64,000 nt of DNA from an uncultured Clostridia bacterium (GTDB taxonomy: Bacteria > Bacillota > Clostridia > TANB77 > CAG-508), in the NCBI GenBank assembly GCA_947590905.1, contig CANQCU010000004.1, positions 16,591-80,590 of the forward strand, given 5' to 3'. The translations under genes and the position numbers were made by a program. Shown here piece by piece: positions 2,955-42,742 of this stretch. Position 1 is the first letter of the stretch; the number at the start of each line of letters is the position of its first letter. Under the pieces are notes generated by a model. It was not told the origin of the DNA. It saw only the letters and a program-made list of their open reading frames with translations, and ran no database searches.

Positions 2955-5162
2955 TTAGTCTATTTGTAAATTATTAGCTTCTTCCCTTTGTAGATTTCTT
3001 TCAATTATTACTGAAGTTTCTGCATAATCTACTCCATTTACAGGATTTTCTCCTGTAAATATGCTTTTGCCAAGTTCTTTAATTGTAATTGGTCTTCTTG
3101 CTATTTTATCTTCAAGCTCTACTTTTATTTCTGGATTTTCTTCTATCAATTTACTATTTACTTGATATCTTGTTAAATAAATACCTCTATCTTCTTCTGG
3201 TATAACTAGTTCTATTAATGCCTCTGCTTTTTCTCCTTGCATAGCCTCATTATCTTTTATTTTTTGAAAACATCTAAGCATTATTTTTTCTTCTTCTGTA
3301 CGTTCTTTTTCAGGTTTTGCTTCAATTCCAGAAAGTCTTTCTGCTGCTACTATAAGCCCACCAAATAGGTTTATATTTTCTATCCATGTATTTGCATCTA
3401 ATGTTCCATCTGCTAAGCGAAATTCTATTGTATTTTTTGCATTTCCTAAATTTTGAAAATTAATTCCAAAATACCTTGATTCTTGTTGTGATCTTTTTGC
3501 AAAATTTCTCATAGCTTCTATACTATCAAGTTGTATTGTTCCACTATTTAACATTTGCAAAAAATTGCCTGAAATCGGACTTGCATATTTTAAAATACTA
3601 TCACGTGGAATTTTTCCTGCTCTATTACTAATAATATAAAATATTTCTTCAGCATTTCCCCATATTTCAATTAAATTCATCCATGCTTCACTAGTAGTTA
3701 AATAATCTGAGCCAATGTGGATGTGACCACCACATTTATCTGAAACTACCTGTTTAAACTTTCCAAGTATATAACAAATCTTCTTTATTGATAAGGAAGA
3801 TTTGTCTGTATCACCTGTTAATATTGGAGAGATCATTTCTACGCCATATGTTAAGCTTCTATCATCTTCACATTTCCAATCTTTTATAACTCCATATTTT
3901 TTTATTTGTGTACTGCATGGTCCTTCTGATTCTATTTCTACTCCTATTGTCATATTCTTAGGTAATTTAATCTTTTTTTTATCATCTTCAAAATCACTAT
4001 CTTCAATTTTAAAACCAGCTAATAATTTTAAGTATGCCACATCACCTTCACTTAGGCCTAATTCTTCTATCTTTTTAGGAGTTAAATAGCTTTCTATATT
4101 TCCTGTCGCTCTTATTAAGTTTACTATATCCGATAAGTCCAAGCCTAATTCTGCTATTTTTTCTGGTGTTAAATAACCTTCTATATCTCCTGTACCTTTT
4201 ATTACGTTTGCAATATTCAATCTTAAAGCTTTATCCTCTTTATCTTGCCAGTCGAATAGGTATTTTTCTGGATTTACTGTTGCTTTTACTAACCTTGTTA
4301 TATCAATATTATTTAAATTAAATGCTACTACTTTTTCTGGTGTTAAATAGCTATCTATATCTCCTGTTGCCTTTATCAGATTTGCCATATTAAATACTAA
4401 GTTTGTTTGCCATTTAAATTTGTATTTTTCGGCATTTCCCGTTTCTTTTACTAAACTTGATATATCTTCTTCATTTAGACCAAATTCTGCCATTTTTTCT
4501 GGAGTTAAATACTTTTCTATATCTCCAGTCTTCTTTATCAAAAATGGTATAACGGCTTTATATAAATTAAGCTCACGTATTTTTTCTAATGTTAAGTATC
4601 TTTCTACGTGCCCTGTTGCTATTATCAAATCTATTATATTGTTTATCCTTAAATGAAACTTTTCTATATTTTCTGGAGTTAGATAGCTTTCTATATTTCC
4701 ACCTTCCGCTTTTATTACATTTCCTATACTAAATACTAAAACTCCGTTTTCTTTGTCTTGCCAGTCAAATAGGTATTTTTTTGGAATTCCTATTGCTTTT
4801 ATTAAACCTGTTATGGCATACTGGTCTAGACCAAACCTTAGTACTCTTTCTGTGGTTAAATAACTCTCTATATCTCCACATTTTGCTTTTATTACGTTTC
4901 CTATATTAAATACTAAAGTTTCGTCTTCTTTGTTTTGCCAGTCAAATAAATATTCTTGAACATCTCCTGTTGCTTTTATTAGAGCTGTTATAGCATATTT
5001 ATCCAAACCCAACTCTACTATTATTTCTGGTGTTAAATACTCTTTTATAAGTTGTTTAAGATTTTCCGGATTACTTACATATTTATTTATGGTTTCTATA
5101 TCGCCTTCTAGATATGCTTTGAATAATTCATTAACTTCTTCTTTATTCATTCGTATCAACAC
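2955..5162 (-). CDS. large repeat protein (about 12 x 35-40 aa repeats 'LTPEKIxELGL…LIKATGDIExYL') with a C-terminal glutamine-synthetase-like amidoligase domain
   Basis: Internal peptide repeats are visible in the translation. The C-terminal about 300 aa carry amidoligase (GS-like) signatures: IGVEIESEG and CGGHIHIG. Confidence 0.5.
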   Translation of the reverse strand: MLIRMNKEEVNELFKAYLEGDIETINKYVSNPENLKQLIKEYLTPEIIVELGLDKYAITALIKATGDVQEYLFDWQNKEDETLVFNIGNVIKAKCGDIESYLTTERVLRFGLDQYAITGLIKAIGIPKKYLFDWQDKENGVLVFSIGNVIKAEGGNIESYLTPENIEKFHLRINNIIDLIIATGHVERYLTLEKIRELNLYKAVIPFLIKKTGDIEKYLTPEKMAEFGLNEEDISSLVKETGNAEKYKFKWQTNLVFNMANLIKATGDIDSYLTPEKVVAFNLNNIDITRLVKATVNPEKYLFDWQDKEDKALRLNIANVIKGTGDIEGYLTPEKIAELGLDLSDIVNLIRATGNIESYLTPKKIEELGLSEGDVAYLKLLAGFKIEDSDFEDDKKKIKLPKNMTIGVEIESEGPCSTQIKKYGVIKDWKCEDDRSLTYGVEMISPILTGDTDKSSLSIKKICYILGKFKQVVSDKCGGHIHIGSDYLTTSEAWMNLIEIWGNAEEIFYIISNRAGKIPRDSILKYASPISGNFLQMLNSGTIQLDSIEAMRNFAKRSQQESRYFGINFQNLGNAKNTIEFRLADGTLDANTWIENINLFGGLIVAAERLSGIEAKPEKERTEEEKIMLRCFQKIKDNEAMQGEKAEALIELVIPEEDRGIYLTRYQVNSKLIEENPEIKVELEDKIARRPITIKELGKSIFTGENPVNGVDYAETSVIIERNLQREEANNLQID

Positions 5163-10056: not shown

Positions 10057-10884
10057 ATGGATGCAAATGATAGTTTAAGAGTTCATTCTTTTGAAAGTTT
10101 TGGTACTGTTGATGGTCCTGGTATAAGATATGTTATATTTCTTCAGGGATGTCATCTAAGATGCAAGTATTGCCAAAATAGGGATACTTGGGAAGAAAAT
10201 ACTGGAAATATTATTCCTATATCCGAAGTTGTTCAAACTATTTTGAAGTATCAAAGTTATATTAAGCCTTCTGGCGGAGGTGTTACTGTTTCTGGTGGAG
10301 AACCTTTGCTTCAAACTAGAGCTTTGATTTCTCTATTTAAGGAATTAAAAAAGTATGATATTAATACTGCAATAGATACTTCTGGTATGTTTAGTTTGAC
10401 TGATGAAGTAAAGGAATTAATTGATTTAACTGATTTGTTTTTACTTGATATTAAACATATTGTTCCTGCTAAGTCAAAGGAGCTTGTTGGCTTTTCGAAT
10501 GAGCTTGAAATTGAATTTGCAAAATATTTAAGTGATATAGGAAAACCTATGTGGATAAGGCAGGTCTTAGTTCCAGGATATACTGATTCCGAAGAAGATT
10601 TGCTTAAGTTAAAGGATTTTCTTTCTACTTTAAAGACTGTTCAAAAGGTAGAAATTTTACCTTATCATGATTTAGGTAAATTTAAATGGGAAAATTTAGG
10701 TCTTAAATATCCTTTATTTGATACAAGAACTGCTACTCAGGAAGATTTTGAAAGAGCTAAAAATATTTTACGGAATTTAATGTATAGATATAATCTTGAA
10801 ATTTTATGTATACTGTGTTATAATAGGTTTCAACCTATTGTAGGTTTTAAACCATTTTTCATTTATAGGAATTGGTTATTTTAA
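10057..10884 (+). CDS. pflA: pyruvate formate-lyase activating enzyme (radical SAM); the native last 3 codons are replaced by a 37-residue tail read from inserted DNA
   Basis: CxxxCxxC radical-SAM motif (CHLRCKYCQN) and the GGGVTVSGGEPLLQ motif. The native 3' end (…AKNILRNLGLD*) survives as a displaced copy at 11473-11601. Confidence 0.85.
   Translation: MDANDSLRVHSFESFGTVDGPGIRYVIFLQGCHLRCKYCQNRDTWEENTGNIIPISEVVQTILKYQSYIKPSGGGVTVSGGEPLLQTRALISLFKELKKYDINTAIDTSGMFSLTDEVKELIDLTDLFLLDIKHIVPAKSKELVGFSNELEIEFAKYLSDIGKPMWIRQVLVPGYTDSEEDLLKLKDFLSTLKTVQKVEILPYHDLGKFKWENLGLKYPLFDTRTATQEDFERAKNILRNLMYRYNLEILCILCYNRFQPIVGFKPFFIYRNWLF
10663..10779. repeat. 117-bp direct repeat, copy 1 (3' end of pflA); copy 2 at 11473-11589, about 91 % identical
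   Basis: Sequence alignment of tatcatgatttaggtaaat…aatattttacggaattta. The two copies bracket a 693-bp higher-GC insert. Confidence 0.8.
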
Positions 10885-10920
10885 GTCCCAAAGTTAGCAA
10901 AAAAAGATTGGAGGAAACTT

Positions 10921-11325
10921 TTGATGTTCAAGTATTACCTTAGAAGTTCATTTCCAACTTATGCGGGTCCGAGATCTAATAATATGTTTATTCGCTACAA
11001 GCGGATAGACCCAAATGACATTCCGCGCGATGTAACTTCCGGCGTTGCAAACCCCGAAATAGCTAGGGTTCTCTCTAATATTTTGGGCTTTGAGGTTCAC
11101 GCAGAACGGCTCGTAATAGCTCCTAGCAATGATAGCATTGTCTATGTAGCTAAATATACTGGGCCTAAAATTCCTAAGGGTGCAACTGCTGTTCCTTCTA
11201 GTGGTTATTTTGAATTCTTTGAAGTAACCACCAGAAAAGTCCATTGCTACAATTGTGGTGATTTTCCCACTCACTGCACTAACTGTAGTCATAGGCGGTG
11301 GTTTGCTGGGCAGAATCCTAACTAA
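10921..11325 (+). CDS. hypothetical Cys-rich protein (CxxC-x7-CxxC) encoded on a higher-GC foreign cassette
   Basis: A GGAGG ribosome-binding site precedes TTG/ATG, and an intrinsic terminator follows at 11355-11400. GC is about 45 % against about 27 % nearby. No family recognised. Confidence 0.3.
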   Translation: MMFKYYLRSSFPTYAGPRSNNMFIRYKRIDPNDIPRDVTSGVANPEIARVLSNILGFEVHAERLVIAPSNDSIVYVAKYTGPKIPKGATAVPSSGYFEFFEVTTRKVHCYNCGDFPTHCTNCSHRRWFAGQNPN

Positions 11326-11354
11326 TAGGCAAGAATCTTTACTAACTTTGGGCA

Positions 11355-11400
11355 AAATGAACCTACTTTGAGAAAATCAAAGTGGGTTCATTTTTTGTGT
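11355..11400 (+). terminator. intrinsic terminator (gaacctactttga-gaaaat-caaagtgggttc followed by TTTTTT)
   Basis: Hairpin with a T-tract immediately downstream of ORF 10921-11325. Confidence 0.5.
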
Positions 11401-11402
11401 AA

Positions 11403-11473
11403 TAGTAAATAATTAGATTTAATGCAAACATAGCAGTTATAATATAAATCCATTTTGATATTTTAATATCTTT
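11403..11473. repeat. 71-bp exact copy of an internal coding segment (21806-21876) of the GT-C membrane protein gene
   Basis: tagtaaataattagatttaatgcaaacatagcagttataatataaatccattttgatattttaatatcttt is identical at both loci. Confidence 0.85.
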
Positions 11474-11589
11474 ATCATGATTTAGGTAAATTCAATTGGA
11501 AAAATTTAGATCTTAAATATCCTTTATTTGATACAAGAACTGCAACTCAAGAGGGTTTTGAAAGGGCTAAAAATATTTTACGGAATTTA
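11473..11589. repeat. 117-bp direct repeat, copy 2 (displaced native pflA 3' end; the stop codon lies at 11599-11601)
   Basis: See the copy at 10663-10779. Confidence 0.8.
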
Positions 11590-11654
11590 GGATTAGATTA
11601 ATATGATTAGAATAATAAATTCTTATTATTCTTTGCTTATTTTAGATATAAAAC

Positions 11655-11686
11655 TGCCCCCTCTTGAATAAAGTCAAGAGGGGGTA
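11655..11686. terminator. strong GC-stem intrinsic terminator (ctgccccctcttga-ataaag-tcaagagggggtag)
   Basis: 13-bp perfect stem lying downstream of hisS (-) and of the pflA remnant (+). Confidence 0.7.
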
Positions 11687-11739
11687 GTTTGTTGAAGCCA
11701 CACAATTCGAGTAACTTCTAGATTCCCAGTAAAGTGCTA

Positions 11740-13059
11740 TCATAAATTGATAAATTTTCTTATACCTTCGTAATCAGTAAGGCAGAACTTGTACACATTT
11801 CCAGTATACATATTTTTCAATTGAATGGTATTACTCTGAAGCTCGTTTTCACCGATTACAATGACATATGGAATATTCATCTTATTAGCAAAATTCATGC
11901 TTTTTTTCAACTTCTGAACCCTTTTTTCCATCTCCGTTATCACTCCAACAGCTCTCATATTGGATACGAACTTAAACGTTTCAGCCTCTGTATTCATAGG
12001 AATTACATATAAGTCGACAGTAGCTACTTTTTTGTTGGATTCCTTTAAGATCAGAACTTCATAAATGACATCCAAACCAAATGACATTCCAACGGCAGGA
12101 TACTCATTTCCATCATCAACAAAACTTGTGATAATTTTATCGTATCTACCACCGCCACCGATACTCAAATTGAATTCCTGACTTCCAACTTTTCTGTCTT
12201 TGAGAAAAATTTCCCAGACAGTTCCTGTATAGATGTCAATACCTCTTGCTAAGTACGGTGCGAATCTCATACATGCGAGAGCCTCTGTTCCTTCGAGATA
12301 CCGATAAAGTTCATCTACTTCAGCCAGTCCTTCATTTACCAGTTCATTATCGTAGGATGCCATCTTTTCTCTAAGAGCCGTATAATCCAAACTTAAAATC
12401 TCTTTCAAAATTTTAACTTTAGACTTTTCAATTCCAATTGCCTCAAACTCTGTCAACAGCTCATCCTCTGTAAGTTTAGCAAACTTGTCAATCAACATAA
12501 TTGATTTCCTTAAAATATTTTCAGGAATTTCGCCAAAAACGCAGAAGATAATACCGCTTAAGAGTTTTCTGTTGTTGAACTCAATTTCAATGTCCAACCC
12601 AAGTTTCTTATAGACATCGTTTGTCATCATCATGTATTCAGCCTCAGCTAGAATACTTTTTACTCCAACAACATCAACATCACATTGCGTGAATTCCCTG
12701 TTTCTACCTACTTTAACTGGTCCATCTCTGAATACCTTGCCTATTTCATACCGTTTGAAAGGTAGGATAATATTAGGATTTGAGCTAATCAATTTTGAAA
12801 AAGTGATTGTCAAATCATATCTTAGTCCTAACTCTCTTCTCCCCTGATCGCTCAACTTGTAAGTTTCATTGAGAATATCAGCACCCTCTGAATATTTAGA
12901 TGCTAACAAGTCAAACTTACAGAGAATTGGCGTTTCCACAGGTGCAAAGCCGTATTTTATAAACTCGCTTTGCAAAACTGTTTTGATTCTTTCCCGAATA
13001 ATCTGTTTTTCGGGCAAGTAATCATATGTGCCTTTTAGGTTTTCAAAGTTTCTGCCCAT
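11740..13059 (-). CDS. hisS: histidine--tRNA ligase (class IIa) with C-terminal anticodon-binding domain
   Basis: HisRS motifs 1-3 (…GTYDYLPEKQ…, FKRYEIGKVFRDGPVKVGRNREFTQCD, GGGGRYD) plus the anticodon-binding domain. GC is about 38 %, higher than the flanks. Confidence 0.85.
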   Translation of the reverse strand: MGRNFENLKGTYDYLPEKQIIRERIKTVLQSEFIKYGFAPVETPILCKFDLLASKYSEGADILNETYKLSDQGRRELGLRYDLTITFSKLISSNPNIILPFKRYEIGKVFRDGPVKVGRNREFTQCDVDVVGVKSILAEAEYMMMTNDVYKKLGLDIEIEFNNRKLLSGIIFCVFGEIPENILRKSIMLIDKFAKLTEDELLTEFEAIGIEKSKVKILKEILSLDYTALREKMASYDNELVNEGLAEVDELYRYLEGTEALACMRFAPYLARGIDIYTGTVWEIFLKDRKVGSQEFNLSIGGGGRYDKIITSFVDDGNEYPAVGMSFGLDVIYEVLILKESNKKVATVDLYVIPMNTEAETFKFVSNMRAVGVITEMEKRVQKLKKSMNFANKMNIPYVIVIGENELQSNTIQLKNMYTGNVYKFCLTDYEGIRKFINL

Positions 13060-13134
13060 GATTATTACTCCTTTCTGAAAATCTTGAGAAATTTTATTAA
13101 AATTTCTCTATGTTATGAACAGCCTTACGCCCAT

Positions 13135-13163
13135 ATTATACAGCATTTCGAGGTTTCTGTCAA
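13135..13163 (-). promoter_or_regulatory. consensus sigma-A promoter of hisS (TTGACA, 17-nt spacer, TATAAT); no T-box leader present
   Basis: The reverse complement reads ttgacagaaacctcgaaatgctgtataat. Only about 100 nt of leader lie before the start codon, and there is no T-box (AATTAGGGTGGNACCGCG) motif. Confidence 0.55.
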
Positions 13164-13202
13164 TCTTATTTACATAATTTGTTGTCTAAAGATGTTGTAT
13201 TT

Positions 13203-14489
13203 TTACAAAACAATTGAATTTATATCATTTCTAAAATATAGATCATTCATATCTATGATATTAAAGTCATCTATAAGTTGTTTCTTTATATCTTCAAAAT
13301 TAGAACCGATTCTTCTTAATTCAAAAACTCTACCTCCAGATGGATATAATCTACCCTCTCGTTCTACTATATGTTCGCCTATAATTTCAGTATCTTGTGC
13401 TATTTTTTCTAAATTCATAATAGGTTCATTATAAATCTTTCTTTCTGTTTCTGGATATCCTGACGAAAAACCGCACATAGCAATAGATATTTTGTCTTTC
13501 ATCCAAAAATCCTGTATTTCATCAATATTGTTATAAAATGAATTAAACACTTCTATTAAAGGTATATCTAATAGGCCTAATAAAGCTATCCATTCTGGAT
13601 TTCCTGTTCTAGTATTATATTCCAAAACATATGGTTTGCCTTCTTCTGTAATCATTACTCCTATATATAATATATAATTATATTCAATTTGTTCATTTTC
13701 AAAGCCCTTTATTGTTGGTTCTATAATATCGTTCTTTAATCTTTTTAATAGTTTAGCAGGATATTTTTTAGATTCTGCAACCGATGCTGTACCAGCTGTC
13801 ATCGGTCCTTCATCATTAGGATATTTTCTTTTATAATCTTGTACCATTGGCATAATACTATATTTATTATTATTTATAAGTACATGTAGTGAAAGTTCAT
13901 GTCCTTTTATTTTTTCTTCTATTATAAGTTTAGCATTTGGCGTAGAATTAAATAATCTATAAATACTATTCTTTGCATCCTCTAAATCTTTCGGTACTGC
14001 TGTTCTTGCATATGAATTTTTTGAAAATTGCTCTACTTTTAATACATATCCATTTTTAGTCTTATTCCAATTTTTACTAATAAATCTAATTGCTTGTTCT
14101 TCATTTTGGGCAACATAATAATCAGGAGTAGGAATATTGTTTCTTTTCATAAATGCTTTTGAATATTCTTTGCTTGTTTCTAATCTTGCAACATCTTTTG
14201 AAATTCCAAAGACTTTATATCCTTTTGCTCTAAATAGTTCTGTTGCTCCTTTAGCAAGATCTGCTCTGTTACTTATAATTACTAAATCTGGTTTAAATGA
14301 GTTTGCGAATTTTATTGCTTCTTCAATATTTCTTACTCTATATACATTGTTATATTGTTTTTCCATTAAGGCATTTTCATTTTGTATTAATGAGCAAATT
14401 TCTATGTTAGGAGATTTCATTAGAGCTACATGATTTGCATGATCTCTTCCATTTCCTAATCCATATAATAATATTTTTTTATGTTTCAT
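13203..14489 (-). CDS. PurD-like ATP-grasp ligase (divergent phosphoribosylamine--glycine ligase homologue)
   Basis: Collinear with PurD: LLYGLGNGRDHANHVALMKSP against [21 protein letters not shown]; …FRAKGYKVFGISKDVARLETSKEYSKAFMKRNNIPTP; EYNTRTGNPE; SGGRVFEL. Key PurD substrate-loop residues diverge. It lies outside any pur operon. Confidence 0.6.
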   Translation of the reverse strand: MKHKKILLYGLGNGRDHANHVALMKSPNIEICSLIQNENALMEKQYNNVYRVRNIEEAIKFANSFKPDLVIISNRADLAKGATELFRAKGYKVFGISKDVARLETSKEYSKAFMKRNNIPTPDYYVAQNEEQAIRFISKNWNKTKNGYVLKVEQFSKNSYARTAVPKDLEDAKNSIYRLFNSTPNAKLIIEEKIKGHELSLHVLINNNKYSIMPMVQDYKRKYPNDEGPMTAGTASVAESKKYPAKLLKRLKNDIIEPTIKGFENEQIEYNYILYIGVMITEEGKPYVLEYNTRTGNPEWIALLGLLDIPLIEVFNSFYNNIDEIQDFWMKDKISIAMCGFSSGYPETERKIYNEPIMNLEKIAQDTEIIGEHIVEREGRLYPSGGRVFELRRIGSNFEDIKKQLIDDFNIIDMNDLYFRNDINSIVL

Positions 14490-14491
14490 TA

Positions 14492-15439
14492 TTAGTTCTC
14501 CTTTATAAAAGGTGGATATTCCTCATCTAACCATATAACTGGTGGTCCGTTTTTTAATTCTTCCTCATTTCTAATATATAAACCATCAAAATATCTTTTC
14601 TTTCCATCTGTTAAATCAATATGAAAAATTATTGGTAATGTTATTTCCTCTGGTTCAATAAAATCAGTAGGTTTTGCTATTTTTATGTATTCTACTTTAA
14701 AATATTTTAATGGCTCTTTTGTCAAACTTTTTTCAATCACTTCTTTGACTTTCTTTGCATTAGTCTCTCCAGATAATATTGCCTTTCTTCCTTCTTCACA
14801 TGCATCACTTAATCTTCTAAATTCTTTTATCTTCTTTTCTGGTAAATTCATTAATCTTGAGGATATTGCAATTCCACTTTTATACCTTACAGTTGGAACT
14901 TCTCTTACTATAATATCATCTTGAAACAAGTCCTTCAATGCTCGTTCAACCAAGATTACTTGTCCTATGTCTTTTAATCCCCAATAAGTCCTTGTTGGTC
15001 TTGTAAATAATATCCATCGAACACTCATTGTGATCATCCCCTTAAATAAATAAGGAACAGCAACTCCATTAAGTCTTTGATAGCATTCCCCTTGATCTAA
15101 ATATGTTCTAAAATCTTCTGGATATATTTCTTCTGTTTTAGGGCATATAATGTGAGTTGCTCCATGCTCTTCTGCAAATTTACAATCCTTATTAATATCA
15201 TATTCATAAGTTGAACCTGGAGCTAATTGAGCTACATTTGGATATATACTAATTACTGTACAATCATTTTCTTTTGCAGATAGTTCTATTAATTTGCCAT
15301 GTCCAATATGTAATGCACCCAAAGTATGTATAGAACCAATTGTTTTTCCTTGTTTGTGTAATTCTTTTAATCCTTCTTTAGCCTCTTCTAAAGAATTCCA
15401 TATAATTGCTGACATAATAATTTCACCTTTCTTCTTCAT
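14492..15439 (-). CDS. PanC-like ligase (pantoate--beta-alanine ligase family, divergent, with C-terminal extension)
   Basis: HIGH-type nucleotidyltransferase motif TLGALHIGHGKL, plus VISIYPNVAQL and IAISSR like PanC. The strongly conserved PanC segment GHFRGV…FGEKDxQQ is replaced. Confidence 0.55.
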   Translation of the reverse strand: MKKKGEIIMSAIIWNSLEEAKEGLKELHKQGKTIGSIHTLGALHIGHGKLIELSAKENDCTVISIYPNVAQLAPGSTYEYDINKDCKFAEEHGATHIICPKTEEIYPEDFRTYLDQGECYQRLNGVAVPYLFKGMITMSVRWILFTRPTRTYWGLKDIGQVILVERALKDLFQDDIIVREVPTVRYKSGIAISSRLMNLPEKKIKEFRRLSDACEEGRKAILSGETNAKKVKEVIEKSLTKEPLKYFKVEYIKIAKPTDFIEPEEITLPIIFHIDLTDGKKRYFDGLYIRNEEELKNGPPVIWLDEEYPPFIKEN

Positions 15440-16700
15440 CTTTTTCTGGATTTACATATATTCTTTTGTTCGGAGACCCTATTATTATGTTATCACTTGA
15501 ATTCAATGACTTAATTTTTATATCTTGTCCATTTTCTTCATTGCATCCTAATATTACTATATGTGTATAATCATCTTTTATCTTTTTTATTGCTTTTCCA
15601 ATATTTTTTATATTTCCTTTATATGCTACATTTTCTCCCATATTCTCTAACGCTTTTATAACTTTCAATACAAAATTTGGTGAGGCATCTATATTACATA
15701 TAGCAATTTTCCTTTTTATATCTTCTGTTAGTTTTAGTGGACTATTTCTTTCTATCGCTTCTACTCCTGATGCAACACTCCAAAAATTTTTTATTTTTTC
15801 ATTCCATCTTCTTGCATATCTTGTATATTCTCCTCCATCTCCTAAAGCAATTCCATCTAAAGTTCTAAATCGTAAAAGATATGTATCTATTGTTTCGATA
15901 CTATGTAAGTCTGTTGGATCAAAATATATATCAACACCTGTAATATAATTCAAACCTTCAGCCATTTTATATAATTTCATATATTCTTCTGGTAAATTCA
16001 GATTATTTTCTTTTTTATATTTAAGACTTATTATTCTTGGTTCTTGACTAAATAAATCTATTAATTCATTACATCTTCCTTCATCTTTTATTAATTGTTG
16101 AAATATTTGTATTCGTTCATCCCTTGAAGAAAATTGTAGTGTATGCAATAATTGTGCCAACTCATTTTCAGATACATATTTACTCAAAATATTTCTTAAA
16201 GCGCCATAATCATTAATATGTATTTTGGTTTTTATACCATTTGCGTCAAATAAATCTGTCATAGATTTTGCAAGCTGTATTAGATTAATATCTAAACTTT
16301 CATCCTCAGACGGTTTTTCATTAATAATTGAATACCCCAATTGTGTAAAATGTCTCGAATGACTATTTCTGTATCTAAATAATGGTGCTACAAATGCTAT
16401 CCTCTGTGATTCACCATTGCTATTTGTTACATAATTTCTAAATACAGATGGTGTTGAATCACATGATAGAATAAGTGCTTTTCCAGATTTGCTATTTAAA
16501 GTATAAACCTTATCTTTTGCTGTATTTGCCCCTCTAATAAATGTTGAACTATATCCAAGTGGAGAATATTTTTTTAATGTGCATCCTATTTTTTCTCCAC
16601 ATTTAGCATGAAAATCTAATATTCTTCTTTCTCTCTTTATCCATTCTTCTTCTCTGTCATACATTCCATGAGGTAATCGCAAATATTCTTCATAACTCAT
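15423..16700 (-). CDS. HisRS-catalytic-core-like protein (class II aaRS / HisZ-like paralog, no anticodon-binding domain)
   Basis: Motif-2-like FVAPLFRYRNSHSRHFTQLG and motif-3-like GDGGEYTRY. It lacks the HisRS C-terminal domain. Confidence 0.5.
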   Translation of the reverse strand: MSYEEYLRLPHGMYDREEEWIKRERRILDFHAKCGEKIGCTLKKYSPLGYSSTFIRGANTAKDKVYTLNSKSGKALILSCDSTPSVFRNYVTNSNGESQRIAFVAPLFRYRNSHSRHFTQLGYSIINEKPSEDESLDINLIQLAKSMTDLFDANGIKTKIHINDYGALRNILSKYVSENELAQLLHTLQFSSRDERIQIFQQLIKDEGRCNELIDLFSQEPRIISLKYKKENNLNLPEEYMKLYKMAEGLNYITGVDIYFDPTDLHSIETIDTYLLRFRTLDGIALGDGGEYTRYARRWNEKIKNFWSVASGVEAIERNSPLKLTEDIKRKIAICNIDASPNFVLKVIKALENMGENVAYKGNIKNIGKAIKKIKDDYTHIVILGCNEENGQDIKIKSLNSSDNIIIGSPNKRIYVNPEKDEEER

Positions 16701-16721: not shown

Positions 16722-17753
16722 TTAGGCATTTACCTCTATTGTTGATTTTTTTTCTTGTTCATTGCCATCAGATTTTCCATTTCTTTTTTGTATGTAAGAC
16801 ATTATAATTGCTACAATTATACATGCTCCTGCAACATATTTTCTCATATTTCCCATTGTCGTCCACAATCCCATAACACCCATAGGAATAACCCAATTCC
16901 ATACTGCAATAGCCAAAAGTGAAATAATTGTTCCCCACTTTTTATTAGCAATTTTTTGAATACTTACTATTGCAGCATCTGCTGTTGATAGAGCAACACA
17001 TAAAACAACAAAAATTAATATTGCATTCATTATTCCATTAAACTTAAACTTTGCAAGAACTCCTATGAAAGCCATATAAATAGCAAATAGCACTCCTGCT
17101 AAATAATGTGCTTTCATTTTTTTCTCTTTCTTTAACTTTTCTGCCATCTGCCAATTTTGTATACACATAATTGGTCCTGAAAATAGTATAAAGCATGAAT
17201 TTAAAGCCCAGAATATCTCACTTTGGTTCGTATAATTCACAATATCATATGTTTCTACATTTCCAACAAAACCACATATTATCAAAATAATAAGTAATAA
17301 ATAGCATAAAATCCATAGAGGATTATCTATAAAAATACTTTTTATTAGTCCATTCTTATATAATGCCACTGTCATAAAGAATATAATAGTAACTGATACA
17401 ATTTTAGATGCTATTTCTGTCATAAATGATAAATTGCATAAATATTGATATATAGCATTTAGTTGAATCCATAGACAAAATATACTAACTATAGTTGTAA
17501 AAATCATAACAATTTTGGAATTTACTACCCTTTCTAAATTCGGTATTCTATAGGCTATAAAACCAAATAATGGTATTGCTAATGAATTTGCTAATGCCCA
17601 GATTACAAATGGTATTATTCCTTTGGTTTGCATTGTTTCCATTCCTACTACTAAAGACGTTCCCCAAGCCCAACTAGCAGCTAGAGACATTGCATAAAAT
17701 AAAGTTGAATTTTTCTTTAACATGTTTTTCATAATTTCTATCATTCCTTCCAT
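16722..17753 (-). CDS. polytopic membrane transporter (about 10 TM), family unassigned
   Basis: Hydrophobicity pattern of the 343-aa translation. Confidence 0.4.
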   Translation of the reverse strand: MEGMIEIMKNMLKKNSTLFYAMSLAASWAWGTSLVVGMETMQTKGIIPFVIWALANSLAIPLFGFIAYRIPNLERVVNSKIVMIFTTIVSIFCLWIQLNAIYQYLCNLSFMTEIASKIVSVTIIFFMTVALYKNGLIKSIFIDNPLWILCYLLLIILIICGFVGNVETYDIVNYTNQSEIFWALNSCFILFSGPIMCIQNWQMAEKLKKEKKMKAHYLAGVLFAIYMAFIGVLAKFKFNGIMNAILIFVVLCVALSTADAAIVSIQKIANKKWGTIISLLAIAVWNWVIPMGVMGLWTTMGNMRKYVAGACIIVAIIMSYIQKRNGKSDGNEQEKKSTIEVNA

Positions 17754-17761
17754 TTTTTTAA

Positions 17762-18760
17762 TTAATTTTTAATATTTATAGAAATTTTTTTATCATTTGC
17801 AATTATATTAGCCTCTCCTCCTATCGGAAAAGTAAAAATCGGAGTAGTATGACCAATATCAGCATTAATTATAATTGGAATATTTTTTAATTGTTTTTTT
17901 GTATCAATGATTTCCTTCCATTTTTCTTTATTCATTTCTGAAATACTTTCTGCTCTTCCTATTACTATTCCATTTATTTTCTTACCTTTTGCAGAATGTA
18001 ATAACGATTGAAGATTTCTATCAAATTCATTTATGAATACTTTATCCGTTTCCCCATCATCTTCTATAAATAATATTGAATTACTTAAATCAGGCATATA
18101 TTCAGTTCCTTGTAGCAAATTTAATGTGCAAAGATTTCCACCTATAATTTTTCCAGTTCCACTTCCATACTGTATTGCTTCCATTCCTTTATTATTTATA
18201 AATTTTCTATCTTCCTGATTTTTCATCCATTTATCATTACTCCATAATTTTGAAGATTTAATTTCTATTTTTTCTTCTTCTATAAAAATTTTCTTAAAAT
18301 ATTCTATTGTATATTCTAAACCATATTTCATACCAAAACTAAAAAATTGTGGACCCGAATATGTTATTAAACCAGTTTTAGAATATATCGCATTAACTAA
18401 GGCTGTGTTATCAGAAAATCCACATATAATTTTAGGATTATTTTTAATCAAGTCATAATCAATGTAATCTAACAATTGATTTACATTATATCCACCAATA
18501 GCAGTAAGTATTGCTTTAACGCTTCTATCTTTAAAAGCATCATGCAAATCTTCTATTCTTTCATTTATAGTTGCACATTTTAAATCATTATTCGAAATTT
18601 TTAATGAATTTTTCCCAAATGTAACTTTAAATCCTATTTCTTCCAATCTTGCTTTTGCTAAATTAACTATATCATCTTTCAGAATAGCCATGCTTCTTGA
18701 TGGAGCAATAATTCTAATTTCATCACCTTTATTTAATTTTGATGGAATTATCTTTTTCAT
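17762..18760 (-). CDS. S66-family serine peptidase (LD-carboxypeptidase LdcA / microcin-C immunity MccF family)
   Basis: Nucleophile motif GFSDNTAL and C-terminal GHTTPIFTFPIGG. LdcA and MccF cannot be told apart from sequence alone. Confidence 0.65.
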   Translation of the reverse strand: MKKIIPSKLNKGDEIRIIAPSRSMAILKDDIVNLAKARLEEIGFKVTFGKNSLKISNNDLKCATINERIEDLHDAFKDRSVKAILTAIGGYNVNQLLDYIDYDLIKNNPKIICGFSDNTALVNAIYSKTGLITYSGPQFFSFGMKYGLEYTIEYFKKIFIEEEKIEIKSSKLWSNDKWMKNQEDRKFINNKGMEAIQYGSGTGKIIGGNLCTLNLLQGTEYMPDLSNSILFIEDDGETDKVFINEFDRNLQSLLHSAKGKKINGIVIGRAESISEMNKEKWKEIIDTKKQLKNIPIIINADIGHTTPIFTFPIGGEANIIANDKKISINIKN

Positions 18761-18905
18761 TTTTCAACAATTCCTTTCGTTTAATATAAAAACATTTATA
18801 TTATATCACCACTTCTTCTTTTATGTCAACTTTTTAGTCGAATATGTTGTGATTTTGCCTCATTTTTATAAATTCACATTAGCCTCATTTTTTATAAATT
18901 TACTA

Positions 18906-18957
18906 TTGTATGTATTATATATTTGTGATATAATGTGTCAAATGCTAGACAGCATTT
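18906..18957 (+). promoter_or_regulatory. promoter (TTGTAT, 17-nt spacer, TATAAT) with an operator-like perfect palindrome AAATGCT-agac-AGCATTT abutting the -10, upstream of the GNAT gene
   Basis: Hexamers at 18906-18911 and 18929-18934. The 7-4-7 inverted repeat sits at 18940-18957. Confidence 0.4.
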
Positions 18958-18982
18958 AATCTTTATGAAAGGACAGATTACA

Positions 18983-19507
18983 ATGAAAAACCAGCAAAAC
19001 ATTCGGCCGTCTGTGAGTTTTGAAGATTTTGCGAAAATTTTCAAAGTTTTTGAATCTTTTCCATTCTTTGAATCTTGGACAGACAAAGAAATTTTGGAAG
19101 AGTATAACTCTTTCCAAAATGGTGGAATTATCTTTGGATATTTCACCGATGAGGGTAAGTGTGTAGGAATCCTGACCATGAAGCCTTATGAGCCTGGCAA
19201 ACACCCTGTAGAATATCCTAGCGATGCTAAGGTTATGTACCTCTCTGATGTCGCTACTCTTTTTGAGTATCGGAATATGGGCATTGCAACTAGTTTGTTC
19301 GAATATGCTATTCGACATTTCCAGGTCCTGGGATATGATTATATCTATCTTAGGACCAATGAAAAAAACTCTATGTCCTATGACATAGCTAAAAAGTGTG
19401 GCTTTGTCCGTCTTTACGATATTATTCAGGAAGTGGAGAGAAAAAGAGCTAATGGTACAATTACGAAGGACGCTAGAATCTTCATGGAGAAGAAATTATC
19501 AAAATAA
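18983..19507 (+). CDS. GNAT-family N-acetyltransferase, higher-GC gene
   Basis: Acetyl-CoA binding motif YRNMGIATSLF. GC is about 40 %. The start is chosen at MKNQQNIRP, which has an upstream ribosome-binding site. Confidence 0.6.
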   Translation: MKNQQNIRPSVSFEDFAKIFKVFESFPFFESWTDKEILEEYNSFQNGGIIFGYFTDEGKCVGILTMKPYEPGKHPVEYPSDAKVMYLSDVATLFEYRNMGIATSLFEYAIRHFQVLGYDYIYLRTNEKNSMSYDIAKKCGFVRLYDIIQEVERKRANGTITKDARIFMEKKLSK

Positions 19508-19586: not shown

Positions 19587-21014
19587 CTATTTTATACATT
19601 CTAATAATTTAATTATAAAATTCCACATTTTATTAGCTGATTTTATAGACATTCTCTCACTTGGACTATGTGCATCATAGATATTAGGAGCAATAGCAAT
19701 AAATTGCAAATTAGGTATTTTATCAGCAAAATATCCACATTCTAAGCAAGCTTGAACTCTTACTTTTTTTATTTTTTTATTAAATACTTTTAGATATAAA
19801 CTATCACATGTTCTTATTAATTTTGTATTTTCGTTTTGTTCATATCCTAAAATATATGTATAATCAACAACTTTAACATTACATTGATTCATAAGATTTT
19901 GTATATTTTTTTCTAACTGTTCTCCTAAACTATTTGAATTATATCTAATAGAATATATTAAATATATAGTATTTCCAACTGTTTCAACTGCTGCAAAGTT
20001 TCCTGATAAAATTATATTACCATACTGGTCACTTTCAATTGCTCCATTTTGAAATTCATTAATAAATTTTAATATATTCTGCGTAGTGTGTTTATTATAA
20101 CAGTTTGTTATATTATCTACTTTGTTAAATACTATATCTGCTGTTGGAAATTGTTTTCGTATTTTATTGAGTTCATCTTTTAAAAAAAGTATTTTTTTGT
20201 TTTCATAGTTATTGATAGAAAAAGTTATTTCACAGTTTCTTGGAATAATATTTACTTTACTTCCACCTATAAAATTTGATATGTATATATCTGAAAAATT
20301 ACTTAGCAATTTAGCTATTATCTTTATTGGATTTCCCCTTTTTTTATCGCCTATGTTTAATCCTGAATGTCCACCTTTAAAATGGGATAATTTTAATGAA
20401 TAGCTAGAAATTTTTTCATCATTTAACTCAATTTTTTCATCATTTATTGCTGATTTCCATTCTTTTGCAGTAGCAGAAGATATCCACATTTCATCTTCTC
20501 TAAAATTGTCAAAAGATATTATCTTTTTAGATTTTAAGACTCTTTCGTCAATAGAACTTGCCCCATTCATTGTTGTTTCTTCTTGTGTAGTAAATATACA
20601 TTCTAAAGCAGGTGATTTTATTTTTTCTGAATCAAGAATTGCTAAAATATATGCAATTCCTATTCCGTTATCTGCTCCTAAAGTTGTATTTTCAGCTTTT
20701 ATAAAATCTCCATCTATATTTAAATAAATTGGCTCTTTAGAGAAATCGTGTTCTGAATTTTTTCTCTTTTCACATATCATATCTATATGACATTGTAGTC
20801 CTAATATTTCTTTATATTCGTATCCTTCACTCGCATCTTTCCATATTATTACATTGTGCATTTTGTCTGTATAATATTTCAAGTTTTTATTAATTGCAAA
20901 ATCAATCAAGTACTTAGCAATTTTTTCTTCTTCTCCTGATTTTCTTGGTATTTTACTTATTTCTATAAAATATTTCCAAAATTCCTCATTTAGTAATTTC
21001 ATTTTATCCTCCAA
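19587..21014 (-). CDS. pepD: aminoacyl-histidine (Xaa-His) dipeptidase, M20 family
   Basis: HDFSKEPI, GADNGIGIA, LKGGHSG and CLECGY are collinear with PepD. Confidence 0.7.
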   Translation of the reverse strand: MEDKMKLLNEEFWKYFIEISKIPRKSGEEEKIAKYLIDFAINKNLKYYTDKMHNVIIWKDASEGYEYKEILGLQCHIDMICEKRKNSEHDFSKEPIYLNIDGDFIKAENTTLGADNGIGIAYILAILDSEKIKSPALECIFTTQEETTMNGASSIDERVLKSKKIISFDNFREDEMWISSATAKEWKSAINDEKIELNDEKISSYSLKLSHFKGGHSGLNIGDKKRGNPIKIIAKLLSNFSDIYISNFIGGSKVNIIPRNCEITFSINNYENKKILFLKDELNKIRKQFPTADIVFNKVDNITNCYNKHTTQNILKFINEFQNGAIESDQYGNIILSGNFAAVETVGNTIYLIYSIRYNSNSLGEQLEKNIQNLMNQCNVKVVDYTYILGYEQNENTKLIRTCDSLYLKVFNKKIKKVRVQACLECGYFADKIPNLQFIAIAPNIYDAHSPSERMSIKSANKMWNFIIKLLECIK

Positions 21015-21242: not shown

Positions 21243-22943
21243 TTATTGTTTTGGAATAATATGTACCTTCTCTTGTGTCTCATCACTTACATACACATCT
21301 ATTGTTTCCAATCCAATATCTACTTTTTTTGCTCCTTCTATTTTTCCTCCAAAATCTTTTCTTACAATGATTGCTGTGTTTGCTTGTTCTAACTCCAATT
21401 CCTCTTCTTCATAATATTTTTTATAATCACAACTCAATATTCCAAAGAAATAATAATCTTCTAGGGCATAAGCATATACTTTGCTATAATCTCTTTTTAA
21501 GAAATTTGCAAGTTTAATATAATCTGGCATTTTCTTTGTTCCTTGTGCCACTGAGTTAGATAAATATAATGGTTGTGCTAAATTAAATGGCATTATAATT
21601 ATTAGACTTGTAATTAGTATTACTATAAAAGATCCTAATTTTTTTACTACTTTTCCTTCTCTTTTTAAATCTAACCACACTAAAATAATCCCAAACATTA
21701 AAACTATTAGCTTTGTTCCAGCTCCATTTAGTTTCATATTTAATGTTAGTATTGTAAGATATAGATAAGCATCTATTCCGGTTATTTTAGGAGTTGCTTT
21801 TATATAGTAAATAATTAGATTTAATGCAAACATAGCAGTTATAATATAAATCCATTTTGATATTTTAATATCTTTTTCTTCTAATTTTAAAAACATTAGT
21901 ATATATGGAATTGCAAATATTGATAGGTATCTTACACATATTTTGCCTGGAAACATATTGCCTGTTTCCTCTGGGATATAAACTATTGCAGACACTTCAA
22001 TTACTGTAAAAATCATACTTAAAGTTACAAACTTTAAAAATTCTCTATCTTCTTTTTCATACTCTTTGTAATTAAATAAAGGTATTAAAACTGGCAAGAC
22101 CCCAAATGCAGAAATTGAGAATACTAGATATTCAACTATACCATATAGAAAATATCCTATTTTACTGATATTTAATGGAAATATACTCATTATTTGTCTA
22201 TCATAATGATTTACTCCATTTTGAAAATTATTAATTATGTATATTATAAAATATCCTAAAAATATCAAGCTTATAAATGCTATCCCTTGATAAAATATTT
22301 TTTGAATTTCTTTTGAGTTCTTGTCCTTCAAATTTTTAACAAATACACATATGAAATACGCAAATGCAATTACTATTGTATATGATTTTGTGAAAAACAA
22401 TATTGCAAATGCTATTATTATTAATATGTCTCGTTTTATATTCTCTTTTTTTGTGAATTTATTATAAACAAGATATGCTATCCATAGAAAAATTGGATAA
22501 CTAAAATTTTCTTGAATTAGATATGCTCCTGATACCATATCTGGAATTATAAGCATTAATGCTGATATTCCAAGAGCTTTTATTTTGCTTTTAAGTATGT
22601 CCTTTGATAACAGATAAACTGGAATTATGCTTGAGGCCATTGCTATTACGCCAATCATTCTCATTATAAATAAGATATTCTCTGGATTATAGAAAAAATA
22701 TGCTAGCGATAAAATTACTGAATATATTATACAACTGTAATTTAGCACTTGGTATTCTCTTGAAAAATTTCCATTATAAAAAAAAGATCTTGCCATGTTA
22801 ACATATAGGTCTTCATCATTACTTTCATAAATTGGAACTGTCATTCTTCTTGCAATATTTCCATATATCAATATACATAATATGAATAACAGTATAAGGC
22901 ATAGTTTTGTATGTCTTTCTAAGAAATTCTTAATTTGTTTCAT
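21243..22943 (-). CDS. polytopic membrane protein, GT-C-type glycosyltransferase-like (ArnT/PMT-like), putative
   Basis: About 14 TM segments, an N-terminal loop with acidic and aromatic residues, and a C-terminal soluble domain. The assignment is tentative. Confidence 0.4.
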   Translation of the reverse strand: MKQIKNFLERHTKLCLILLFILCILIYGNIARRMTVPIYESNDEDLYVNMARSFFYNGNFSREYQVLNYSCIIYSVILSLAYFFYNPENILFIMRMIGVIAMASSIIPVYLLSKDILKSKIKALGISALMLIIPDMVSGAYLIQENFSYPIFLWIAYLVYNKFTKKENIKRDILIIIAFAILFFTKSYTIVIAFAYFICVFVKNLKDKNSKEIQKIFYQGIAFISLIFLGYFIIYIINNFQNGVNHYDRQIMSIFPLNISKIGYFLYGIVEYLVFSISAFGVLPVLIPLFNYKEYEKEDREFLKFVTLSMIFTVIEVSAIVYIPEETGNMFPGKICVRYLSIFAIPYILMFLKLEEKDIKISKWIYIITAMFALNLIIYYIKATPKITGIDAYLYLTILTLNMKLNGAGTKLIVLMFGIILVWLDLKREGKVVKKLGSFIVILITSLIIIMPFNLAQPLYLSNSVAQGTKKMPDYIKLANFLKRDYSKVYAYALEDYYFFGILSCDYKKYYEEEELELEQANTAIIVRKDFGGKIEGAKKVDIGLETIDVYVSDETQEKVHIIPKQ

Positions 22944-30876: not shown

Positions 30877-30951
30877 TGGCTCGGGCGGTTAGATTCGAAC
30901 TAACGCATGTCGGAGTCAGAGTCCGATGCCTTACCGCTTGGCGACGCCCGA
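30877..30951 (-). tRNA. tRNA-Gln (anticodon CTG), 75 nt with encoded CCA
   Basis: Minus-strand sequence TCGGGCGTCGCCAAGCGGTAAGGCATCGGACTCTGACTCCGACATGCGTTAGTTCGAATCTAACCGCCCGAGCCA. A 7-bp acceptor stem, the Gln-type D-loop AGCGGTAAG, a normal 7-nt anticodon loop CUCUGAC, and the T-loop GTTCGAATC. Confidence 0.85.
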
Positions 30952-41170: not shown

Positions 41171-41381
41171 AATTATTCCTTAGCTTTTACTATTATATCC
41201 ATCGGCAACTTACCATATTTTCTTGCACTTTAAAAGCACATATCTTTATATAGAATGTGCTTTTTCTTTGATAATTATTATTATATTACATTATTTTAGC
41301 ACTGTCAAGTGGAGAGTGCTAATTTATAATTTTTCTTTACTTCTACTATGAAAATCCGTATAGTAAAAGACTTTTAGCATT

Positions 41382-42619: not shown

Positions 42620-42639
42620 TAAAAGTCTATTTAAAATAC

Positions 42640-42742
42640 ACTATCATTCAAAGCATATTGCCTTGCCGGTATTAGCACCTTATCTTTCACAGGTTGCTGT
42701 GGGTTCATTAAGCCGGTTCTTTCGCCCACTCTTGATAATGTA
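42640..42742 (-). promoter_or_regulatory. SAM-I (S-box) riboswitch aptamer in the metK leader
   Basis: The minus-strand sequence reads UUAUCAAGAGUGGGCGAAAGAACCGGCUUAAUGAACCCACAGCAACC…GGUGCUAAUACCGGCAAGG…GAAUGAUAG, matching the S-box consensus blocks (UUAUCAAGAG, GGUGCUAA). Confidence 0.8.

Follow-up and report, generated by a model that had tools for sequence, protein, structure and literature searches.

The 64-kb stretch of DNA considered here (contig CANQCU010000004.1 of an uncultured Clostridia bacterium, positions 16,591 to 80,590; referred to as the window) carries on its minus strand, at 11740..13059, a histidyl-tRNA synthetase (HisRS) gene, hisS, whose 439-aa product is, judged by its conserved motifs, a catalytically intact enzyme of the PRK12420-like clade, called type 2 below. 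The gene behaves as an autonomous, self-contained expression cassette that is conserved in its orthologs, it is distinct from the canonical HisRS that related genomes encode as well, and in varying gene orders it is physically linked to an operon of ligase genes that begins with an S66 serine hydrolase gene, and often to a GNAT acetyltransferase gene. As a tentative interpretation, possible though short of probable, we favour a role of the type-2 enzyme as an inhibitor-insensitive replacement target.

The type-2 synthetase and its expression signals

On the TIGR00442 hisS model the protein scores 315.4 bits, above the cutoff of 286.75, and its best-scoring model is NF009085 (PRK12420), where 481.7 bits lie under the cutoff of 540 and place it outside the subfamily as curated. 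Pfam recognizes the tRNA-synt_His and HGTP_anticodon domains, the second of these (PF03129) at residues 350-424 with E = 4.3e-10. The class II and histidine-specific motifs are complete, with motif 2 present as FRDGPVKVGRNREFTQ and motif 3 as GGGGRYD, together with LRYDLT and with HisA as ARGIDIYTG. Because the class II, HisA and HisB motifs and the anticodon-binding domain are all kept, there is no sign of a pseudo-enzyme. The motif-2 loop, which is adenylate-binding, reads FRDGPVKVGRNREF (FRDGP..GRNREF) against YRGEKPQRGRYREF in the canonical enzyme, and HisA reads RGIDIYTG against RGLDYYTG (DIYTG versus DYYTG); the HisRS copies on Bacillales plasmids carry the same changes at both places. 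The protein contains 0 histidine residues (P ~0.0035 at the window mean of 1.28 %). Avoidance of the enzyme’s own amino acid is common to both HisRS paralogs, 70 of 120 members of the family of the 439-aa protein and 97 of 120 of the canonical paralog’s family being histidine-free; the hisZ and hisG products mostly contain 1-3 histidines each, and the Bacillales plasmid copies 0-1. Carriage of this HisRS type by phages or viruses was looked for, and none was found.

Transcription of hisS is predicted to start from a sigma-A-type promoter, TTGACA-17-TATAAT (13135..13163, minus strand), which agrees with the consensus at 12/12 positions, as the first-pass annotation had noted. Perfect consensus promoters number five in the window, where 0.13 would be expected by chance, and three of them fall within the hisS/operon locus; the other two are at 41280-41308 and 53749-53777, both on the minus strand, and one of these is upstream of a ribosomal-protein block. 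Among 21 orthologs the promoter scores 12/12 in 17 and 11/12 in the remaining ones, and in 19 of the 21 it stands 66-79 nt from the ATG regardless of whether hisS comes after the PurD-like gene, ahead of the S66 gene or on its own. In the window the -10 hexamer is 75 nt from the hisS ATG, which implies a leader of ~68 nt, shorter than the roughly 100 nt first supposed.

The leader contains a hairpin, GAGAAAUUUUA-AUA-AAAUUUCUC (13086..13108, minus strand), which lies ~12 nt upstream of the Shine-Dalgarno sequence AAAGGAG; the latter (13068..13074, minus strand) lies 8 nt before the ATG and is conserved in orthologs. Folded one by one, 13 of 14 ortholog leaders adopt this hairpin as their minimum-free-energy structure (z-scores -2.6 to -5.7), and its stem covaries with pairing preserved (AGAGAAUUA/UAAUUCUCU, AGAAAGUUCA/UGAACUUUCU, GGAAGAU/AUCUUCC). 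Leader sequence is little conserved among the orthologs, and RNAalifold run on a MAFFT alignment of the leaders returned no pairs, so missing the hairpin. Elsewhere in the window the hairpin-arm motif has one match, at 20740-20766, where the spacer is non-complementary. Given the conserved hairpin the leader is not featureless, though constitutive expression from the consensus promoter is plausible. Downstream, the gene is followed by a predicted intrinsic terminator (11657..11684, minus strand) with an 11-bp stem that includes 7 GC pairs and leads into a U-run.

That hisS has no T-box leader, as initially observed, is upheld by Rfam searches: no T-box was found in the whole window at the gathering threshold, and no T-box, riboswitch or other Rfam family near hisS (11300-13600) at E<=10. 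None was found in 20 related loci either, and the Bacillales PRK12420-like copies are likewise without one. By inspection, the leader has no short open reading frame (ORF) bearing His codons, of the kind that leader-peptide attenuation would involve. With its own promoter, a short hairpin leader, a strong Shine-Dalgarno sequence and its own terminator, hisS thus needs no T-box or his-operon control.

Paralogy, descent and base composition

The closest genomes are uncultured gut Clostridia metagenome-assembled genomes (MAGs), from rabbit, chicken, human and other hosts, together with Clostridium sp. CAG:440. A canonical 436-aa HisRS is present in nine related loci besides the type-2 copy. The 436-aa enzyme (in L004 at 17892-19202) scores 405 bits on the hisS model and is 33 % identical to the 439-aa HisRS. 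The canonical paralog is 50-54 % identical to the hisS products of Vescimonas (54 %; from a hisS-aspS operon), Paraclostridium and Acetoanaerobium, to which the 439-aa protein is 30-33 % identical. The nearest named relatives of the latter, 44-46 % identical, are accessory plasmid genes of Planococcus, Lysinibacillus and Bacillus cereus and a copy in Bacillus sp. N5-665. In a neighbour-joining tree the sequences form two deep clades, with the 439-aa HisRS among the Bacillales plasmid enzymes and the other paralog among Clostridia hisS. The suspicion that hisS is not the lineage’s canonical copy is borne out by this grouping and by the low identity to the relatives’ 436-aa enzyme. The Bacillales PRK12420/NF009085 second hisS genes, some of them on plasmids, share with the present gene not only this identity and clade but also the FRDGP loop, a (D/E/N)IYTG version of HisA and a nearly histidine-free composition; they differ in that the 439-aa protein scores under the NF009085 cutoff, belongs to a separate Clostridia sub-clade and has its own conserved promoter cassette.

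Within the two paralog clades the species branch alike. Phylogenetic placement, proposed as a check in the first-pass annotation, therefore sets the gene apart from Clostridia housekeeping hisS and at the same time shows a species branching congruent with that of the canonical paralog. Such congruence indicates that the lineage has held both paralogs for long and that hisS is no recent import; on the evidence of the trees, type-2 hisS is an old resident of the lineage. Identities within the lineage are lower for the type-2 than for the canonical enzyme (87 vs 93 %, 84 vs 87 % and 76 vs 82 %), and the type-2 protein thus evolves faster, yet a GC-rich Oscillospiraceae contig encodes a homolog of it at 63 % identity, against the 54 % that the canonical copy has to the Vescimonas hisS product, and this suggests lateral spread of type-2 HisRS. 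A homolog 63 % identical to the Clostridia-type HisRS is present in L020 (CAXXFQ010000017.1, 606 kb; labelled a Thermoguttaceae MAG, 55 % GC), where its GC content at third codon positions (GC3) is lower than that of its neighbours, pointing to lateral transfer or a mislabelled bin.

On a Bacillus cereus plasmid (NZ_CP085499.1; L023 3503-10004) a PRK12420-like HisRS is encoded last in an operon with two subunits of a thiamine pyrophosphate-dependent decarboxylase (sulfopyruvate or phosphonopyruvate decarboxylase-like), a DUF6002 protein, an unknown protein and a DMT transporter, followed by a ParB-N-domain protein; two tandem tRNA-His genes (3113-3186 and 3247-3320) adjoin it. The plasmid operon represents another candidate cluster, unrelated to the first, that includes an accessory HisRS.

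The base composition of hisS is distinct from that of its surroundings. GC content is 35.7 % in the coding sequence and 35.3 % over gene and promoter together (11740-13163), as against 26.7 % in the upstream 1 kb, 27.7 % in the five-gene upstream operon and 29.0 % in the window. The downstream flank is uneven, with 27.3 % at 11356-11739 and 41.4 % at 10885-11355, the latter because a GC-rich inserted ORF lies there. The initial contrast of about 38 % with flanks of about 27 % was therefore right in that GC is raised, though the coding sequence itself has the lower value given above and the downstream flank is not uniformly low. The excess is almost wholly synonymous: the first and second codon positions are ordinary (GC1 0.42, GC2 0.30) and GC3 is 0.352, where 65 other window ORFs have a mean of 0.149 (sd 0.036, maximum 0.265), so that hisS has a z of 5.6. 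Ribosomal-protein genes (52-64 kb of the window) have a GC3 of 0.09-0.16, and high expression is thus no explanation. A similar anomaly occurs in just two other window ORFs, the GNAT gene at 18935-19507 (0.377) and the small ORF at 10924-11325.

Raised GC3 is common to the whole orthologous group, being 0.22-0.42 in every AT-rich relative, with neighbouring genes at 0.07-0.21 and the canonical HisRS paralog at a native 0.10-0.16. In codon usage, A-ending codons (ATA, TTA, CAA, AGA) are avoided and the frequency of T at third positions is unchanged. The G/C third positions are diffuse among orthologs, with no site-by-site conservation; an embedded RNA structure acting through site-specific G/C third positions was rejected, their distribution being near binomial (variance 2.3 vs 1.76). 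Four-fold sites are near saturation between the deeper ortholog pairs (0.33-0.43 identity). By rough estimate, amelioration after one ancient transfer would seem to be too slow a process to explain the GC3; gene-specific codon-usage selection or recurrent exchange may do so, and the data do not tell these two apart. In L019, L031 and L033 the raised-GC3 genes are contiguous and comprise a 115-aa ORF, a racemase-like gene, the GNAT gene and type-2 HisRS, which suggests a module that was acquired together. A gene-specific codon usage that is stable across species despite saturation of synonymous sites is in itself an unexplained evolutionary observation.

One explanation of such a composition, that hisS was recently imported horizontally into this genome and its raised GC marks foreign DNA not yet ameliorated, draws on the distance of hisS from the other window genes (5.6 sd in GC3), on the other GC-rich inserts close by (the ORF at 10924-11325 and the GNAT gene) and on a 72-bp exact repeat that flanks a 10.4-kb segment around the locus. 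It is very improbable and is already contradicted by the orthologs, which in all AT-rich relatives share the raised GC3 and the promoter, are near saturation at four-fold sites in the deeper pairs, and form a gene tree that agrees with that of the canonical paralog; the adjacent ligase operon, moreover, is natively composed.

The neighbouring operon and its linkage to hisS

Upstream of hisS and on the same strand lies an operon of five genes, encoding in order an S66 hydrolase, a membrane protein, a HisRS-like protein and PanC-like and PurD-like ligases. Linkage was counted in 19 non-redundant loci retrieved with HisRS and in 11 operon loci retrieved with the LeuT-fold membrane protein. Eight of the former have the ligase operon, two (L010, L016) have PurD-like remnants and one (L015) has S66 alone; seven of the latter have a type-2 HisRS alongside. 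Adjacency of HisRS and operon is kept through at least three gene orders and over a HisRS identity range of 64-90 %. In L016 the ligases are deleted and the pair of S66 and HisRS is retained, and in L014 another enzyme set (NDP-sugar dehydrogenase, TIM-barrel protein, 581-aa HisRS-like protein, YgjV-hexapeptide acyltransferase and AMP-ligase) ends in the same pair. A different MccF-type S66 lineage stands directly downstream of HisRS in L015. The S66 hydrolase and HisRS thus usually persist where the operon decays or is replaced.

This linkage bears on one account of the gene, namely that it is an ordinary old duplicate. The two HisRS would then be translation isoenzymes, one constitutive (the present hisS) and one co-transcribed with his genes, the S66/ligase adjacency would be inherited synteny, and the present gene could even be the only hisS of its genome. 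Neither paralog is damaged or contains histidine, and the congruence of the two trees indicates vertical co-inheritance; the hisS promoter is of the same class as the one before the ribosomal-protein genes (53749-53777); this window contains neither the his operon nor the canonical copy, and the NCBI-only-record candidates are at most 86 % identical to the closest relative’s canonical copy; and a relative with 46 % identity, from a Bacilli MAG, is flanked by a sigma factor gene and tgt, which is a housekeeping-like setting. One would not expect passive synteny, however, to outlast at least three gene orders and divergence to 64-90 % HisRS identity, nor does it account for the independent S66 lineage adjoining HisRS in L015 or for a distinct codon usage that hisS shares with the GNAT and racemase-like genes and with no core gene. 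We regard this account as rather improbable, though less so should this genome have lost the canonical copy.

The operon’s first gene (17762..18760, minus strand) is identified as that of an MccF-like S66 serine hydrolase by similarity and active-site residues. Its product scores 368 bits against the MccF-like BA_5613 of B. anthracis, 160 against BaMccF and 140 against E. coli MccF, and just 50-69 against LdcA enzymes. The GFSD serine and GHTTP histidine are in place, as is a W-x4-W loop that aligns with FWSDESINW of BaMccF; by these comparisons it is of the MccF type and not of the LdcA type. Processed microcin C, when bound to E. coli MccF, has its adenine stacked against a Trp (PMC8323819). 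A perfect promoter, TTGACA-18-TATAAT with a TG element (18800..18829, minus strand), precedes the S66 gene, as near-consensus ones do in most relatives, and a second perfect one, TTGACA-16-TATAAT (18914..18941, minus strand), lies further upstream. The GNAT acetyltransferase gene (18935..19507, plus strand; PF00583, 3.2e-12) is transcribed divergently, and its orthologs stand directly upstream of HisRS in L019, L031 and L033.

The second gene (16722..17753, minus strand) encodes a 343-aa transporter with about ten transmembrane helices, to which neither Pfam nor NCBIfam has a match. Its AlphaFold2 model (pLDDT 88, pTM 0.84) is predicted to have a LeuT/APC fold, with Foldseek matches to CHT1, ApcT, LAT1, AdiC, BetP and CodB. 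Distant homologs (27-33 % identical; L043-L104) turn up frequently in metagenomes from gut, termite, rumen and sludge; their genes usually precede those for PAPS-reductase-domain proteins and an unknown 207-aa protein, and in six loci they precede a LeuRS gene.

The remaining three genes encode one HisRS paralog and two ligases of other families, where the first-pass annotation spoke of neighbouring histidine-ligase paralogs. The HisRS-like paralog (15423..16700, minus strand; PF13393, 1.5e-14) is full-length at 425 aa and scores 72 bits on hisS and 49.2 on hisZ (TIGR00443 cutoff 271.65), both far below the cutoffs. The motif-2 Arg and FTQ are retained, GGRYD of motif 3 has become GGEYT, a His replaces the Arg of HisA, and the C-terminal part looks like an anticodon-binding domain. 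Like HisZ, the protein is a HisRS paralog with damaged catalytic motifs; it differs from HisZ in its score, its anticodon-binding-like C-terminus and the lack of an adjacent hisG in the window, true hisZ being separate in relatives. In L027 (11034-12318), L036 (11034-12318) and L114 (11547-12816) the gene is split into two ORFs (~160 aa and 230-256 aa), which may be a frameshifted pseudogene or a gene naturally in two parts; in two of these loci, L027 and L036, no type-2 HisRS adjoins the operon. The PanC-like adenylate-forming ligase (14492..15439, minus strand; PF02569, 151 bits; TIGR00018, 142 bits vs a cutoff of 212.75) is the best-conserved product of the operon, at 85-95 % identity. The last gene (13203..14489, minus strand) encodes a PurD-like ATP-grasp ligase with GARS_N/A/C domains (TIGR00877, 270 bits vs a cutoff of 288); it has a GC3 of 0.128, and no terminator lies between it and the hisS promoter. 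That these two are ordinary housekeeping panC and purD is unlikely, both being under the curated cutoffs. No ThiF/MccB-like domain was found in the operon proteins, and 8 locus proteins gave 0 matches to the PADLOC anti-phage defence models.

In relatives the typical order is the five-gene operon, type-2 HisRS, hisZ, hisG and a fusion of a His-racemase-like gene with GNAT, then further his genes (hisH/A/F/IE; in some genomes only some or none), the 436-aa HisRS and a VanX-like gene. The his operon between the two HisRS genes is reduced to hisZ-hisG in L003/L009 (11800-13393) and to hisZ-hisG with a likely hisIE in L006 (12034-15876), with no hisH/A/F in between, and would be truncated if the missing genes are not located elsewhere. 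The His-racemase-like gene (CntK/HisR family, 77-86 bits, far under the cutoffs) is fused or adjacent to GNAT in the his region, at L004 13692-15062, L019 8463-9849 and L105 9149-9985, with raised GC3, and in some genomes stands directly before the canonical HisRS. Genes for tRNA-His(GUG) lie beside several loci, before S66, HisRS or hisZ (L004 4007-4084, L005 500-575, L019 3641-3717, L031 162-238); the window itself has only a tRNA-Gln gene (30877-30951). Canonical hisS, the his operon and hisG are all absent from the 64 kb. A gene for PepD, an Xaa-His dipeptidase (TIGR01893, 389 bits), is found at 19587-21014; it was rejected as part of the conserved locus, its adjacency being seen only in this genome.

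These surroundings raise the main alternative to an inhibitor-insensitive enzyme, namely that the extra HisRS protects a histidine or His-tRNA pool, the operon importing or drawing on histidine through its transporter, HisRS-like binder and ATP-grasp ligase and the second, strongly expressed synthetase supplying translation or the pathway. A HisRS-specific precedent exists in the histidine decarboxylase (HDC) islands of lactobacilli and Tetragenococcus plasmids, where an accessory hisS is combined beside pathway genes with a tRNA gene, an APC-type antiporter and an M20 peptidase (PMC5313534). The present locus likewise has a LeuT/APC-fold transporter and the PepD dipeptidase, the relatives’ loci are flanked by tRNA-His genes with hisZ-hisG, further his genes and the His-racemase-like gene next to HisRS, and both HisRS paralogs avoid histidine, as expected of proteins made under His-tRNA scarcity. 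The HDC-island hisS is, however, of the bacterial type and regulated by a His T-box, where the present gene is PRK12420-like with a constitutive-looking consensus promoter, no T-box and no decarboxylase beside it. Further, loci in which the operon is missing or in decay still have HisRS, the company of an MccF-type hydrolase (L014, L015, L016) would not obviously serve such protection, no known aminoacyl-tRNA-consuming enzyme family is represented in the operon, and PepD adjacency is limited to this genome. Protection of a histidine pool is, in our estimate, a doubtful explanation.

Several other features of the window lie close to the locus. A 72-bp exact direct repeat (11402-11473 and 21804-21875) brackets the 10.4-kb segment with hisS, the operon, GNAT and PepD, and its second copy is inside a 566-aa PMT_2-like gene. 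Either a genuine duplication or a join made in assembly may lie behind it; public Logan contigs that have this sequence break off at 21875, where the second repeat copy finishes, and at 11514, within the duplicated 3′ end of pflA. That 3′ end occurs at 10662-10779 and again at 11472-11589 (118 bp, 92 % identical), and the insert of ~690 bp between the copies (10780-11471) extends the pflA reading frame. The insert contains the ORF 10924-11325 (plus strand, 41 % GC), with its own ribosome-binding site and hairpin, a C-terminal HCYNCG..HCTNCSH and no family match. Farther away, a SAM riboswitch is found at 42638-42741 (minus strand, 82 bits).

A possible inhibitor-insensitive HisRS

Documented immunity routes against aminoacyl-nucleotide toxins are GNAT acetylation, S66 hydrolysis and an extra aminoacyl-tRNA synthetase (aaRS) copy (PMC8323819), and the classical self-resistance arrangement is a divergent aaRS paralog that adjoins biosynthetic genes (PMC5388404). 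It is on these routes and this pattern, together with the co-retention of S66 and HisRS, that an inhibitor-insensitive HisRS is favoured, and the staying together of S66 and HisRS through decay or replacement of the ligases is the observation most specific to it. AT-rich uncultured gut Clostridia related to Clostridium sp. CAG:440 keep, as a lineage, type-2 HisRS besides canonical hisS. In the favoured scheme, tRNA-His would stay charged by the type-2 enzyme when the canonical one is blocked by a histidyl-adenylate-like or other HisRS-directed metabolite. The adjacent MccF-like hydrolase might cleave the toxin and the GNAT acetylate it. The metabolite might come from the neighbouring operon, with its HisRS-like, PanC-like and PurD-like ligases and transporter, or from gut competitors.

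Known self-resistance aaRS, such as the AgnB2 LeuRS of agrocin 84, the mupirocin IleRS and second SerRS, TrpRS and MetRS enzymes, are similar in being divergent, laterally spread second aaRS encoded beside small-molecule biosynthetic genes (PMC8323819, PMC5388404), with their own expression signals and a canonical copy elsewhere, which for hisS is seen in relatives. They differ in that no HisRS-directed toxin is among the known cases, in that hisS persists without the operon, and in that the chemistry of the hisS-adjacent operon is unprecedented (HisRS-like, PanC-like and PurD-like proteins and a LeuT-fold transporter, with no polyketide synthase (PKS), nonribosomal peptide synthetase (NRPS) or MccB). 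Microcin C immunity, with the S66 hydrolase MccF, the GNAT MccE2 and, in some mcc-like clusters, an aaRS, is matched by an S66 of the MccF branch with catalytic Ser/His and Trp loop, a GNAT and an aaRS; unlike microcin C loci, the hisS locus has no MccA peptide, no ThiF-like adenylyltransferase MccB, no MccC pump and no specific MccE2 match for its GNAT, and its cognate amino acid would be histidine and not aspartate.

The arrangement of a self-resistance aaRS copy in an antibiotic locus, as first proposed, is therefore matched in part: the divergent paralog (in relatives) and the S66/GNAT/ligase linkage agree with it, and the persistence of HisRS without the operon and the importer-type fold of the transporter do not. 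A number of observations weigh against an inhibitor-insensitive enzyme. Linkage is incomplete in both directions, as L027 and L036 have the operon without a type-2 HisRS nearby, and L009, L017, L019, L020 and L115 keep HisRS with the same promoter and have no operon within 10 kb. The neighbourhood is centred on histidine (hisZG, tRNA-His, the racemase-like gene, PepD), which fits a metabolic role too, and the relative in the gut Bacilli MAG combines a native GC3 with surroundings like those of a housekeeping gene. For this genome no second hisS was demonstrated, in a search covering the window and three Logan candidates, all from other samples; the second copy that the first-pass annotation made its test is seen in relatives. 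The description “compositionally foreign” holds as a GC3 anomaly and not as recent import, the anomaly being conserved in every AT-rich ortholog and the paralog trees congruent. The lack of a T-box, taken at first as the sign of a special copy, is uninformative and carries no weight, because the relatives’ canonical hisS, the Vescimonas hisS-aspS operon and Paraclostridium hisS are also without one. Within the operon, the modelled LeuT/APC fold would be typical of importers, exchangers or antiporters and not of antibiotic exporters, and the HisRS-like protein, without its motif-3 arginine, may not adenylate. The GNAT gave only marginal matches as a specific MccE2 or streptothricin acetyltransferase homolog, and no product, inhibitor or resistance phenotype is known for the locus.

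A more specific version of the inhibitor-insensitive reading, in which the operon would make a histidine-derived aminoacyl-nucleotide mimic or other pseudopeptide against canonical HisRS and the producer would be shielded by type-2 HisRS, the MccF-like hydrolase and the GNAT, is one that we put forward as unlikely on present evidence. HisRS is not among the 13 aaRS targets of natural inhibitors listed in PMC5388404, and the surveys PMC5388404 and PMC9437257 report no natural HisRS inhibitor and no functionally explained bacterial HisRS duplicate. No HisRS self-resistance gene or similar cluster was found in the literature, and no counterpart was found for the enzyme set of the operon.

In this setting hisS may be the first protective HisRS copy against a natural inhibitor. 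Should the operon make such a compound, it would be the first natural HisRS-targeting antibiotic system, without NRPS, PKS or MccB, and widespread in abundant uncultured gut Clostridia. If instead the metabolic reading is true, the locus would illustrate how gut bacteria with reduced genomes build their handling of histidine on dedicated synthetases. If type-2 HisRS is an inhibitor-insensitive target, the two-HisRS arrangement in a common gut lineage could reveal a new class of aaRS-directed metabolites together with their resistance determinants.

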